Shown piece by piece: positions 3,667 to 6,597 of a DNA stretch of 64,000 nucleotides (positions are counted from its first letter, which is position 1; the number at the start of each line of letters is the position of its first letter). The notes under the pieces were generated by a model. The model was not told the DNA's origin. It did no database searches and was given only the letters and a program-made list of their open reading frames with translations. The stretch comes from Candidatus Giovannonibacteria bacterium. GTDB lineage: Bacteria > Patescibacteriota > Minisyncoccia > UBA11713 > 2-01-FULL-45-33. The translations under genes were made by a program, and so were the position numbers. The DNA is taken from NCBI GenBank assembly GCA_016432405.1, contig CP066687.1, positions 42,456 through 106,455 of the forward strand. Reading direction: 5' to 3'.

Positions 3667-4171
3667 GCGCGTAAAGCGCGATGCCGGCCGCAACTGAAAC
3701 ATTCAGCGATTCTTTTTTGCCGCGCATGGGGATTTCTATAATTTTGTCGCATTTTTCAAGAACCGATTTCGGAATGCCGCTGACCTCGTTGCCCAAAATC
3801 AGCGCGATGCCCGACTTGGAAGTCCGGCTTCCAAGTGAAAACTTTTTAAGATTCAGCGACTTTTTTGACTGCTCCAAGGCGATAATCTGAATTTTTTCTT
3901 TTTTTAAGCGTTTTATTAAAACTGCGATATATCGCAGTTTTTCCCATTTCATGTATTTCTCCGCGCCCAGCGCGGTTTTTTGAAAATCTTTCCGAAGTTT
4001 TCCGAAAATATCGTGCGGCCCCGGCGTGTAGCCAGTTAAATAAATTTTTGAAACCCCCATGGCATCCGCCGTCCGAAAAATAGAGCCGACATTATGCAAA
4101 CTTCGGATATTATGCAAAACCAAATAAATTTCCCGCTCTAATCTTTTTTTGGATTTTATACGTATTTCCAT
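3656..4171 (-). CDS. SpoU/TrmH-family RNA 2'-O-methyltransferase
   Basis: Motifs LVLHNIRSLHNVGSIFRTADAMG and LILGNEVSGI...NVSVAAGIALY are typical of the SPOUT family. The 5' end overlaps the RT gene by 62 nt. Confidence 0.75.
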   Translation of the reverse strand: MEIRIKSKKRLEREIYLVLHNIRSLHNVGSIFRTADAMGVSKIYLTGYTPGPHDIFGKLRKDFQKTALGAEKYMKWEKLRYIAVLIKRLKKEKIQIIALEQSKKSLNLKKFSLGSRTSKSGIALILGNEVSGIPKSVLEKCDKIIEIPMRGKKESLNVSVAAGIALYALSN

Positions 4172-5111
4172 GTTTCAACAAGCCGAAATAAGAATTAAGT
4201 GTTTCGGAAACTAGATTCTCACTTAATCTTTTTATCATCCTTCTTTTTGTGCTTGTCCGCAATACGCGATGGTCGGAAAAATTTACCCATCCCAAAAAAT
4301 CAACGCCGGAAGCCAAAGTTTTAATGAATAATTTGTCCGGATGTAAATCAAGTTTCAGCTTTTCGCATAAAAAGTTTTTAATCTGCAGAATAAGGCCTTC
4401 CAACCAATTCTTATTTTCAGAAAAAATCACAAAGTCATCCGCGTAGCGAAGATAATATCTGGCTTTAAGTTTGTGCTTCACAAACTGGTCAAACTCATTC
4501 ATATAAATATTCACAAACAACTGCGAGGTTAGATTGCCCAACGGCAAGCCGACATTCTGCCTAGTTGAAGAAAAACTCTTTATAACCTGTTCGAGAAGCC
4601 ATAAAATATCCGAGTCCGGAATATAAGATTTTAAAGTTTTCATTAAAACCTCGTGGTCAATGCTGGCAAAAAATTTTCTGATGTCGCACTTCAAAACCCA
4701 ACAGGTTTTGGTGTTGTTCCGGCTGACTTTCCAAGCAAACGCGCGAAAACGGTTGAGGGCTTTGTGAGTTCCTTTTTCAAGGCGACAGGAAAAAGAATCA
4801 GCAATAAAAACCCTGTCAAAAAACGGATAGAGCTTGCGGTAAATCGCGTGGTGCAAAAGCCGGTCGCGAACGCTGGCCTTATGGATATGCCTCGGCTTAG
4901 GGTCAAAAATATGAAAAGATTTATAGCCGCCGTGCTCGTAAGTATGCTGGGCAAGGTCGTTATGAAGAGATAAAATATTATCCATTAGCCGCAAAGAAAA
5001 TTCTTGAACATCGCGCTTGTTTCTCTTGCCGCGCACAAATTCCCGCCAGGCCTCTAGTAAGTTTTCTATACCAATGATATCCTCAAAATTATGAGTCAAT
5101 TGAGTTTTCAT
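4110..5111 (-). CDS. Diversity-generating retroelement reverse transcriptase
   Basis: A 333-aa protein with an RT motif C, YADD box (RYADDFVIF). It also carries the DGR-diagnostic motif 4 variant GLPLGNLTSQLFVNIYMN, where SQ replaces the SP of group II/retroviral RTs. Its size matches DGR RTs. Confidence 0.9.
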   Translation of the reverse strand: MKTQLTHNFEDIIGIENLLEAWREFVRGKRNKRDVQEFSLRLMDNILSLHNDLAQHTYEHGGYKSFHIFDPKPRHIHKASVRDRLLHHAIYRKLYPFFDRVFIADSFSCRLEKGTHKALNRFRAFAWKVSRNNTKTCWVLKCDIRKFFASIDHEVLMKTLKSYIPDSDILWLLEQVIKSFSSTRQNVGLPLGNLTSQLFVNIYMNEFDQFVKHKLKARYYLRYADDFVIFSENKNWLEGLILQIKNFLCEKLKLDLHPDKLFIKTLASGVDFLGWVNFSDHRVLRTSTKRRMIKRLSENLVSETLNSYFGLLKHGNTYKIQKKIRAGNLFGFA

Positions 5112-5507
5112 AAAAATTTTTCCACTACGCCCCCCCCCCGCAGGGTTTTACCGCTTCTTGAAAAAATAAAAAGCGCATATTTATTATGGTACAGTTATTA
5201 TCAAATTTTGCCCAAACCACACAGGCATTCTCTTGGTCAGCGAATTGATACGCTTTTTATAGAAACAATCGAGGCAATATCAATTGCCGCTTTTTTGGCT
5301 CGCCAGGAAAAACAGCCATATATCCGTCTTGCGATACGAAAAGTTGATACGTTAAATATACTTTTAATGATTCTTTGGGAAACCAAATCGCTGGAAAATA
5401 AAAAATATGCCGCATTGTCGATAAAAATAATCGAAATTGGTAAAATGCTTGGGGGATGGAGCGGGCAAATTTTAAAACAAAACTCTCCCAAAACGGGAGA
5501 GAAATGA
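5091..5507 (+). CDS. avd: Avd-like accessory variability determinant (four-helix-bundle / 23S rRNA IVS protein family)
   Basis: A roughly 130-aa helical protein. Motifs LGQRIDTLFIETIEAISIAAF...IRLAIRKVDTLNILLMILWE...LSIKIIEIGKMLGGW match the Avd/PF05635 pattern. It lies between the TR and the RT. The exact start is uncertain: the ATG at 5091 overlaps the divergent RT start, and a C10 tract lies at 5130-5139. Confidence 0.7.
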   Translation: MSQLSFHKNFSTTPPPRRVLPLLEKIKSAYLLWYSYYQILPKPHRHSLGQRIDTLFIETIEAISIAAFLARQEKQPYIRLAIRKVDTLNILLMILWETKSLENKKYAALSIKIIEIGKMLGGWSGQILKQNSPKTGEK

Positions 5508-5513
5508 AGAGAT

Positions 5514-5639
5514 TTGCGAAACGGCAAACGCGAACCCATTGTCACGATTCCACCTATTGTCAGGCCTGTCGTTGTACGCGTTCAACCAGCGACCATCATC
5601 ATTGCGGTTCGCGTTCAGCAAGTTCGGATTGCCATCGGA
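5514..5639 (-). repeat. DGR template repeat (TR)
   Basis: The 126 bp match 5980-6105 except at 16 positions. Every mismatch is a T on the + strand, i.e. an A in the minus-strand sense. The translation is AAC/Asn-rich: NANRNDDGRWLNAYNDRPDNRWNRDNGFAFAVSQ. Confidence 0.85.
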
Positions 5640-5927
5640 ATCGCACGAAATATCGTCCATGTCACCACCCCTCGAATACTCTCGGGGTTGAATCGAATCC
5701 GGCATAGCAATGCCTTAATATCTCGCGCCAAGTATCTTCTTTTTTTGAAGTTTCTGCATGCACCACTCTATCTGCAACCGTGATCGCAGATACTCTCGAT
5801 GCATGGATACTGGGTTCGGTAGCGGGAAATATAAAATTTATCTCCCGCATATTCACCTACTACCACTCTGGATTTTAACATAAGAAAAACCCCCGCATCC
5901 ACTATTTCTAGTAGACACAGGGGCAGG

Positions 5928-5965
5928 ACTAAGACCAAAGGACCTAAAAGATCACAGTGTCTTAG
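5928..5965 (-). promoter_or_regulatory. Hairpin immediately 3' of the VR
   Basis: An 8-bp inverted repeat, ACTAAGAC ... GTCTTAGT, with a 22-nt loop. The right arm covers the stop codon. It sits where DGR target-recognition hairpins are found. Confidence 0.4.
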
Positions 5966-6597
5966 TTTTGAGGGCTAACTTGCGAAACGGCAAACGCGAA
6001 CCCACTGTCACGAGGCCACCTAACGCCAGGCCTGTCGTAGTACGCGAGCAACCAGCGACCATCAGCATCGCGGTCCGCGTACAGCAAGTCCGGAAGGCCA
6101 TCGGAGTCATTGATGGGTTCGTGCATTGCGACGATCCACCAAAGGCCCATGGCTTTGATCTCCTCGTCCGTGAACTTCTCACGGATGAGGCAAGCCACTT
6201 CGGCGTTCGGCTTTTCAAGCTTGCGCTTGTCGGCCTCGGCGCGGATCTTCTTCGTGATCCGGTCGTTGTCCTCGAAGAGCATGCCATTGAGAACGGCGAC
6301 TTCAGTCGTTACGCCTTTGGTCGGCACGAAGCTCGGCGAACGGAGCACCTGCTTGGCGTAGTCACCCACGCGGAAGCCTTTGCTCTCAAGCCTGGTGACC
6401 CAATCCTCGCCAGTCGTGCCATCGCTGATGACCGAGAAGTAGATGACGCCGTCTTCCTTGCGCCACGAACGGGTCGGTTCGGAAACCGAGAGTTCGTCGC
6501 GGAGAAAACGGAGCGCCATGTCGTGGCCACCGAGTTTCTTGACGATGGCGTTGAGTTGGCCGGCGGTGAGGTCGGCGGATGCAAATTCTGTACTCAT
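5962..6597 (-). CDS. DGR variable (target) protein
   Basis: A 211-aa ORF starting MSTEFASADL, preceded by the RBS AAGGAGG. The C-terminal 42 codons form the VR: DRDADGRWLLAYYDRPGVRWPRDSGFAFAVSQVS. The gene is GC-rich (about 60-65%) against an AT-rich neighbourhood. Confidence 0.8.
   Translation of the reverse strand: MSTEFASADLTAGQLNAIVKKLGGHDMALRFLRDELSVSEPTRSWRKEDGVIYFSVISDGTTGEDWVTRLESKGFRVGDYAKQVLRSPSFVPTKGVTTEVAVLNGMLFEDNDRITKKIRAEADKRKLEKPNAEVACLIREKFTDEEIKAMGLWWIVAMHEPINDSDGLPDLLYADRDADGRWLLAYYDRPGVRWPRDSGFAFAVSQVSPQN
5980..6105 (-). repeat. DGR variable repeat (VR)
   Basis: Aligns to the TR with A-specific substitutions only. The 25 bp at the 3' end, TTGCGAAACGGCAAACGCGAACCCA on the + strand, are identical between TR and VR. 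This is an IMH-like segment. Confidence 0.85.

Follow-up and report, generated by a model that had tools for sequence, protein, structure and literature searches.

The Retroelement Locus

A 64,000-nt stretch of DNA from Candidatus Giovannonibacteria bacterium (GCA_016432405.1, contig CP066687.1, positions 42,456-106,455), referred to here as the window, was investigated for a candidate diversity-generating retroelement (DGR). The region 4110-6597 of the window was identified, with a probability of roughly 95%, as a complete and recently active DGR of the type usual in the Candidate Phyla Radiation (CPR)/Patescibacteria. A preliminary description of this DNA had proposed such an element, made up of a reverse transcriptase (RT), an accessory variability determinant (Avd), a template repeat (TR), plus a target gene bearing a variable repeat (VR), and all four parts were found at or near the positions it gave. 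The extent of 4110-6597 that it assigned holds for the core; the functional unit extends a little beyond it, given the consensus promoter of the target at 6714-6742. The target, TR, and RT lie on the minus strand, with avd between TR and RT on the plus strand. The core parts are listed below (coordinates are window positions, and minus-strand elements are marked (-)).

5962-6597 (-): target (variable protein) gene, 211 aa, predicted C-type-lectin fold
5978-6108 (-): VR, 131 nt, target codons 164-206, 17 A-to-N differences from the TR
5980-6004 (-): stretch at the VR 3' end identical to the TR, with a boundary like that of the initiation of mutagenic homing (IMH) site; TGGGTTCGCGTTTGCCGTTTCGCAA; adenines only in the last two bases
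5512-5642 (-): TR, 131 nt, 33 adenines, 10 AAY codons
5091-5507 (+): avd, 138 aa, in opposite orientation to the TR and RT
4110-5111 (-): DGR RT, 333 aa (open reading frame (ORF), Pfam, NCBIfam, and PDB comparisons)

A scan of the whole 64 kb revealed no second VR, target, RT, or avd.

Adenine-Specific Mutagenesis and Recent Activity

The TR and VR form a direct repeat, 466 nt apart. Mismatches between the two copies fall at TR adenines in 17 of 18 cases (hypergeometric P 2e-11 over 131 nt), and the sole mismatch at another base, a T>C change at repeat position 3, is synonymous. An adenine-specific near-repeat of this kind, with the VR inside the 3' end of the target and AAY codons, marks membership of the DGR class. 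No stop codon can be reached by adenine mutagenesis of the TR, and the theoretical repertoire is ~10^18 proteins. The preliminary description had recognized the TR at a length of 126 bp, five short of its actual 131 nt. It had also sized the target correctly and had taken the VR as its last 42 codons, whereas the VR covers 43 codons and is followed by five more. At all loci (related loci from other genomes carry numbers prefixed with L), the VR/TR homology stops right after GCAA, with VRs continuing as GCAAGT and TRs as GCAA(C/A)TCTCTTC.

The same pattern was seen among relatives. Across 47 close homologs of the target, entropy averaged 2.06 bits in those VR codons for which the TR carries adenine in the first or second codon position, compared to 0.19 for other VR codons, and residues 1-165 were near-invariant (0.34 bits). 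In approximately 38 of 80 related genome loci, a TR lies roughly 340 nt downstream of the VR, with mismatches that are adenine-biased.

The DGR was recently active. A second assembly of the same strain, the independent public Logan assembly of run SRR12113426 (locus L084), encodes a target homolog (P0002) that is 92% identical to the window target, and its contig keeps the gene order of the window (RuvA, Mur ligase, SIMPL, target, RT, SpoU). Over 9,678 aligned nt, the two assemblies showed 19 mismatches and no gaps. All 19 differences lie in the VR (6006-6096), each opposite a TR adenine, while the TR and the remaining 9.5 kb are identical. This shows retrohoming after a very recent split of the two assemblies; an invariant TR with adenine-confined VR changes, observed here from two assemblies, is the signature of ongoing mutagenic retrohoming. 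Restriction of VR variation to TR adenines was a check put forward in the preliminary description, and this comparison within one strain bears it out. That the cassette is instead a decayed or inactive DGR whose TR/VR differences are old is very improbable. Around one in two related target genes lacks a TR, avd, and RT within 6 kb, which indicates that in this family loss, or a parting of target and cassette, is common, but every ORF in the window cassette is intact, and the same-strain assemblies are identical over 9.6 kb except for the VR changes at TR-adenine sites.

Reverse Transcriptase and Avd

The RT had been described as a 333-aa protein with a YADD box and an SQ-type motif, and this was confirmed. 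YADD occurs in RYADDFVIF, and the SQ-type DGR motif is VGLPLGNLTSQLFVNIYM (LPLGNLTSQLF). The protein matched Pfam RVT_1 at 7e-25, and its best solved-structure match was the Bordetella phage DGR RT bRT (8ub7, 4e-43), with the best group II intron RT at 1.8e-17. Its placement in the DGR clade was made by motifs ([I/L]GxxxSQ and YxDD) and PDB matches. The nearest relatives of the RT (70-83% identity) come from CPR genomes in every case.

It is next to impossible that this is a group II intron or retron RT and that the repeat is a coincidental partial gene duplication: its NCBI name (protein P0271, 'group II intron reverse transcriptase domain-containing protein') and its best NCBIfam match (TIGR04416, group II RT/maturase) point that way, but TIGR04416 scores only 145.8 against a cut-off of 300 and NF038233 (retron St85) 59.8 against 235, the bRT match is better than that to any group II RT by 26 orders of magnitude, Rfam returned no intron or retron RNA in 4000-7000 (E up to 1), and both an Avd and the adenine-specific TR/VR pattern adjoin the gene. 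The NCBIfam group II, retron, and DRT models all fell far under their cut-offs, which answers in favor of a DGR the question of RT class that the preliminary description had raised. Relatives of the RT are named 'retron-type reverse transcriptase', and such group II and retron names on DGR RTs are routine mis-namings. A SpoU-family methylase ORF downstream (3656-4171, -) is annotated as beginning within the last part of the RT ORF, an overlap of 62 nt (4110-4171), and the true SpoU start may lie downstream of the annotated one.

The proposed Avd ORF of approximately 130 aa proved to be a 138-aa gene that passes the cut-off of Pfam PF22296 bAvd (41.3 bits, cut-off 40), and its position is conserved in 35 related loci. 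Its plus-strand orientation, opposite to all other parts, had not been mentioned in the preliminary description. The avd ATG (5091, +) and the RT ATG (5111, -) overlap head to head by 21 nt, likewise in relatives such as L005. Either the promoter of each gene would have to sit within the other one, or transcription of the RT would have to come about by read-through of the TR RNA.

No evidence contradicting the DGR identification was found. Two results weigh on the other side without contradicting it: the Avd scored 61 bits (E 1e-16) against NCBIfam DivGenRetAVD, under the cut-off of 80, and a candidate hairpin after the VR was rejected as a Bordetella-like cruciform, its fold energy being no better than that of shuffled sequence (z -0.28). 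Wu et al. 2018 (PMC5758913) reported GC-rich inverted repeats after the VR for just 34% of DGRs.

5928-5967 (-): weak candidate hairpin after the VR (CTAAGAC...GTCTTAG), holding the stop codon; the motif recurs in relatives; low confidence

Structure and Distribution of the Target Protein

The ATG at 6597 was taken as the start of the target, and a longer TTG-initiated ORF as unused, because the homologs all begin MSTEF. The lack of an obvious signal peptide, already remarked upon in the preliminary description, was corroborated: no hydrophobic segment that could serve as a signal peptide or transmembrane segment was present (maximum Kyte-Doolittle value over 19 residues, 0.96). Nothing meaningful was matched in Pfam (E up to 10), in NCBIfam, or among PDB sequences, whether queried with the protein alone or with a 91-sequence profile. 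The sole profile match, a short repeat match to an Ig-like protein, was rejected as spurious.

A structural model was obtained with AlphaFold2 from the 91-sequence alignment (mean predicted local distance difference test score 95.1, predicted template modeling score 0.83). The model resembles C-type-lectin-fold proteins, including Mtd, TvpA, invasin, intimin, Ly49, and many animal C-type lectin domains. Foldseek searches against the PDB gave weak E-values (>=0.016), and nearly all matches were C-type lectins. The VR makes up the final three strands of the model (residues 169-175, 182-187, and 198-207), and the N-terminal residues 12-32, which form two helices, are conserved family-wide. As modeled, the target is a divergent C-type-lectin-fold protein, the fold expected of a DGR variable protein of this class, and the uncharacterized fold class suggested in the preliminary description receives no support from this prediction. 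AvpA of Nanoarchaeota is another C-type-lectin-fold DGR variable protein. TvpA (2y3c) and Mtd (1yu0) share with the window target the predicted fold, a VR placed in C-terminal strands and loops, and an aromatic/glycine end motif (GFAF in the window); they have no detectable sequence similarity to it. The window target differs from them in its conserved N-terminal two-helix segment, and it has no FGE-sulfatase Pfam match.

Homologs of the target are numerous. A word-indexed search returned 1,754 matches, and an exhaustive representative search returned 1,918 clusters at 50% identity. Among species-representative genomes, 126 target-family loci were found, and all those informatively named were CPR/Patescibacteria from many class-level groups. 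The family is without a name in Pfam and NCBIfam, and no description of it was found in the DGR literature compared, a comparison to which the supplementary VR classes of Wu et al. did not belong. For the ~1,900 clusters of unnamed proteins, assignment to the C-type-lectin fold and to a DGR-target role is now possible.

All 35 avd-bearing loci among the 80 show the order target(+), TR, avd(-), RT(+). The remaining target loci, about half, lack a TR, leader, avd, and RT within 6 kb (e.g., L009, L011, L014, L017, L019, and L021-L024). These cassette-free targets nevertheless have diversified VRs, and in L053 and L067 two copies sit on one contig, separated by ~32 kb. The cassette-free targets may be orphans, or they may be served in trans as remote targets.

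An antisense ORF (5968-6759, +, 263 aa) spans the whole target and is codon-aligned with it. It was rejected as a gene, and is probably none, because such an ORF results when a gene avoids codons ending in A (TTA, CTA, and TCA).

A Predicted Structured Leader RNA Upstream of the TR

Directly 5' of the TR lies a conserved region that appears to be an undescribed structured RNA. No description of the leader, or of the GC anomaly and mosaic evolution reported below, was found in the DGR literature compared, which took in neither the supplement of Wu et al. nor Paul et al. 2017. The elements of the predicted TR RNA are as follows.

5872-5880 (-): extended -10-like box for the TR RNA, TGTTAAAAT; TATAAT-like box conserved in 27 loci; ends 7 nt before the leader
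5643-5864 (-): conserved, structured 5' leader of the TR RNA, 222 nt; starts GG(C/T)AGTAGGTGAAT
5848-5841/5829-5822, 5811-5797/5765-5749, 5792-5783/5778-5769, 5714-5710/5705-5701, and 5690-5684/5671-5663 (-): local stems of the leader
5474-5511 (-): TR RNA tail; 10 nt pairing with the leader, a hairpin at 5501-5483 (CUCUCCC-GUUUU-GGGAGAG), then UUUUGUUUU

A leader profile gave one match in the window and matched 45 other loci, always directly 5' of a TR. The leader accompanies TR-(avd)-RT even where the target is elsewhere (L043, L075), and it is ~80% identical between cassettes whose RT DNA is ~65% identical to that of the window. Rfam 15 contained no match for the leader or the tail (window, L004).

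The structure of the leader was predicted with RNAalifold as five local stems and two long-range helices, and pairs were counted on a MAFFT alignment of 27 loci. Of the cells in this count, which took in leader, TR, and tail, 94.3% were paired. Pairs changed on both sides numbered 59, compared to 31.9 ± 3.1 in shuffles (0/500 reached 59) and to 21-28 when partners were slid one to three columns. Folded as a single sequence, the 395-nt RNA of the window gave a z-score of -4.07. Two ORFs in this region (5662-5856 and 5768-5938) were rejected as genes, given the compensatory, RNA-type changes and frame-breaking indels they contain.

In long-range helix A, leader positions 5728-5717 (GCGCGAGAUAUU) pair with 5654-5643, the 12 nt abutting the TR 5' end; 9 of the 12 pairs are compensated, and the helix is rebuilt from other sequences in the distant cassettes L086 and L087. 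In long-range helix B, leader positions 5743-5729 (AAAAGAAGAUACUUG) pair with 5516-5502, which comprises the last five TR bases and the next ten. Helix B is compensated in L086 (AAAGA with UCUUU) and L087 (CUGUUGC with GCAGCAG).

The tail lies inside the terminal portion of avd, which is encoded on the other strand. Its hairpin (helix 17) has three of seven pairs changed on both sides, and a U-run follows in every locus. It is a candidate Avd-binding stem-loop and/or intrinsic terminator, the latter because of the U-run.

Base Composition and Mosaic History of the Cassette

The cassette is heterogeneous in guanine plus cytosine (GC) content. In the window, the target has 59% GC and the RT and avd 37-39%, with flanking DNA at ~48%. 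Across 84 loci, target GC averages 57.6% and keeps to around 58-62%, with flanks ranging from 28% to 61%. The third codon positions of the target are roughly 75-80% GC (C about 0.5, A 0.09, T 0.12-0.17). Adenine avoidance was considered as the cause of the GC-rich target and rejected; because A and T are both depleted at third positions, the bias is a general one toward third-position GC. A minority clade has targets of ordinary GC (L030, L047, L048, L054, L068, L078).

Outside the VR, 15-17% of codons for identical amino acids differ between the window target and those of the L004 group, where codon usage predicts 42-45%. The RTs of the same cassettes are saturated at synonymous sites (observed and expected both ~0.6), and avd is saturated too. 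The target, leader, and TR of the window are 85-91% identical in DNA to those of cassettes whose RT protein is only ~60% identical. Conversely, the nearest RTs (83% and 76%) belong to cassettes with the same layout and leader and with different targets, one 27% identical and one without detectable similarity. The window leader is 86-88% identical to L004-group leaders and 67% identical to the L086 leader. The target-leader-TR block and the RT have different histories, since their closest relatives differ. Horizontal replacement of the target block would be the simplest reading of these discordant relatives, and nucleotide-level constraint or biased gene conversion may also have produced the discordance.

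Proposed Function of the TR RNA

In this DGR, a TR-containing RNA is the template from which the RT, together with Avd, makes cDNA, misincorporating at template adenines. The mutagenized cDNA then takes the place of the VR, the 43 variable-region codons of the 211-aa protein. In the proposed mechanism, the TR would be transcribed as its own ~390-nt RNA, starting near the extended -10 box (5880-5872) and ending at the hairpin and U-run (5501-5474). Leader strand 5743-5717 would form two contiguous duplexes and stand in for the spacer (Sp) of the Bordetella system. Helix B, made with the TR 3' end and the tail, would act as the template:primer duplex, with priming at or near the invariant G5729 and G5517 as the first templated base; helix A, 12 nt long and upstream of the TR, would act as the stop duplex. 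The hairpin after the TR would bind Avd and/or end transcription.

This arrangement is modeled on the Bordetella ribonucleoprotein, in which Sp47-56 pairs with the TR 3' end, A56 being the primer, and, two nt later, Sp59-70 pairs upstream of the TR, forming the cPRT Stop (bioRxiv 10.1101/2023.10.23.563531). Because the same two duplexes are predicted in the same order, the leader may be equivalent in function to the spacer but located on the opposite flank of the TR. The DGR of Bordetella phage BPP-1 (mtd-avd-TR-brt) shares with the window a bRT-homologous RT, an Avd, adenine-specific mismatches, and AAY codons, and one strand of its RNA forms a pair of neighboring duplexes, with the TR 3' end and with the segment upstream of the TR, as predicted for the window leader. 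It differs in having a 140-nt spacer downstream of the TR, whereas the window has an Sp-like strand in the 222-nt leader upstream and, unlike BPP-1, a hairpin and U-run directly after the TR. Consistent with priming from the leader, the VR/TR homology ends after GCAA, and the terminal CAA codon varies little (0.92 bits).

Our tentative proposal, which we hold at somewhat less than even odds, is that CPR DGRs with the TR-(avd)-RT order termed architecture B3 use a permuted DGR RNA, with the priming and stop strand in a ~220-nt leader upstream of the TR and with the RNA ending at a hairpin/terminator after it. This leader would be a covariation-supported family marking thousands of CPR DGRs. The proposal holds further that the target-leader-TR block moves independently of the RT and stays at ~59% GC in hosts of 28-61% GC, pointing to frequent horizontal target replacement among CPR bacteria.

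Several points weigh against the RNA part of this proposal. Helix B varies little in the 27 loci (three invariant pairs, four changed on both sides) and was not the best duplex found by RNAduplex on the window sequence alone. The structure was derived from the same alignment that was used for pair counting. A promoter scan gave no convincing minus-strand promoter for the RT, whose start overlaps that of the divergent avd. The RNA mechanism, transcript ends included, is a prediction from sequence.

The unlikely but most serious alternative is that the RNA works as in Bordetella, with priming and RT-binding elements downstream of the TR in a read-through RNA antisense to avd, and that the leader is only a stabilizing or regulatory element, or one that binds proteins and has no part in priming. 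Avd-binding stem-loops downstream of the TR, together with upstream/downstream duplexes, were predicted in 207 of 278 DGRs, CPR included, by Handa et al. (bioRxiv 10.1101/2023.10.23.563531), from sequence limited to 40 nt on the upstream and 100 nt on the downstream side of the TR. The window, too, has a hairpin after the TR, and read-through would account for transcription of the RT, as the scan from the TR RNA terminator to the RT start gave no promoter on the minus strand. However, conservation downstream of the hairpin is explained by avd coding on the other strand, the hairpin is followed by the U-run in all loci, and the covariation sits in the leader, whose strand pairs with both TR flanks and is compensated in L086 and L087. 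These features argue for the permuted RNA with its priming strand in the leader, which would also offer a test of whether the priming architecture seen by cryo-EM in Bordetella survives a rearrangement of the RNA parts.

Transcription of the Target

The following elements were assigned to the target transcript.

6714-6742 (-): putative target promoter by consensus match, TTGACA-17-TATAAT, 12/12 consensus positions, ~115 nt upstream of the ATG
6598-6707 (-): target 5' untranslated region (UTR), two small hairpins near the ribosome-binding site (CCACCUCGGGUUAGAGGG, GCGCAAAUAAGCGC)
5889-5924 (-): terminator-like hairpin and T-run ending the target transcript, with equivalents in relatives

The 5' UTR is conserved and covarying in the target family, both partners being altered in 24 of the 39 predicted pairs, and it is a possible riboregulator. 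Rfam gave no match for it (window, L004). The ~165 nt preceding the ATG contain, in L004-L026 and other loci, a ~21-bp stem-loop together with two small hairpins; the ribosome-binding site has its GGAG paired there with a UUCC stretch. The window keeps only the 3' half, with the two hairpins, and has the consensus promoter where other loci have the large stem-loop.

Comparison with Known DGRs and Genomic Setting

The order TR-(avd)-RT was defined as architecture B3 by Wu et al. 2018 (PMC5758913), and 90% of the CPR DGRs published have it; the window cassette shows this order with avd on the reverse strand. DGRs of Patescibacteria form their own clade 2, their targets are typically without transmembrane or recognizable domains, and novel C-type-lectin variants are expected among them (Roux et al. 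2021, PMC8144416). In gene order, inverted avd, host group, and small domainless target, the window cassette is like the CPR B3 DGRs (PMC5758913; clade 2, PMC8144416), with no fundamental difference. Because this layout and such targets have already been published, the cassette is of a known CPR kind. As a DGR it is ordinary, CPR genomes being known to be rich in such cassettes; what seems new is the leader, the target composition, and the mosaic cassette. The discordance between target block and RT, together with the GC anomaly, bears on how hypervariable genes spread among episymbiotic bacteria. As a clean case of natural activity, the cassette is also a candidate reference CPR DGR for biochemical reconstitution.

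The small target is apparently cytoplasmic, whereas that of BPP-1 is a phage tail-fibre protein. The absence of an export signal keeps alive the question of Roux et al. of whether CPR DGR targets act inside the cell. The window cassette is chromosomal, unlike that of phage BPP-1. IMG/VR viral contigs contained no relatives of the target, so there is no evidence for a phage-borne cassette.

The CPR-specific cassette also occurs in third-party metagenome-assembled genome records titled 'uncultured Gammaproteobacteria' (L047, L048, L062, L073, L078, L082), titles that are probably taxonomic labeling or binning errors. Many further third-party annotation (TPA) records are titled 'uncultured Candidatus Saccharibacteria'.

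In the window, the cassette sits among housekeeping genes (RuvA, Mur ligase, SIMPL, SpoU). Elsewhere, the cassette or target adjoins a tyrosine integrase, a Mutator-type transposase, or an rve integrase (L001, 6003-6992; L085, 4536-5759; L087, 6811-7686). Neighboring genes vary between genomes, which is consistent with mobility of the cassette.

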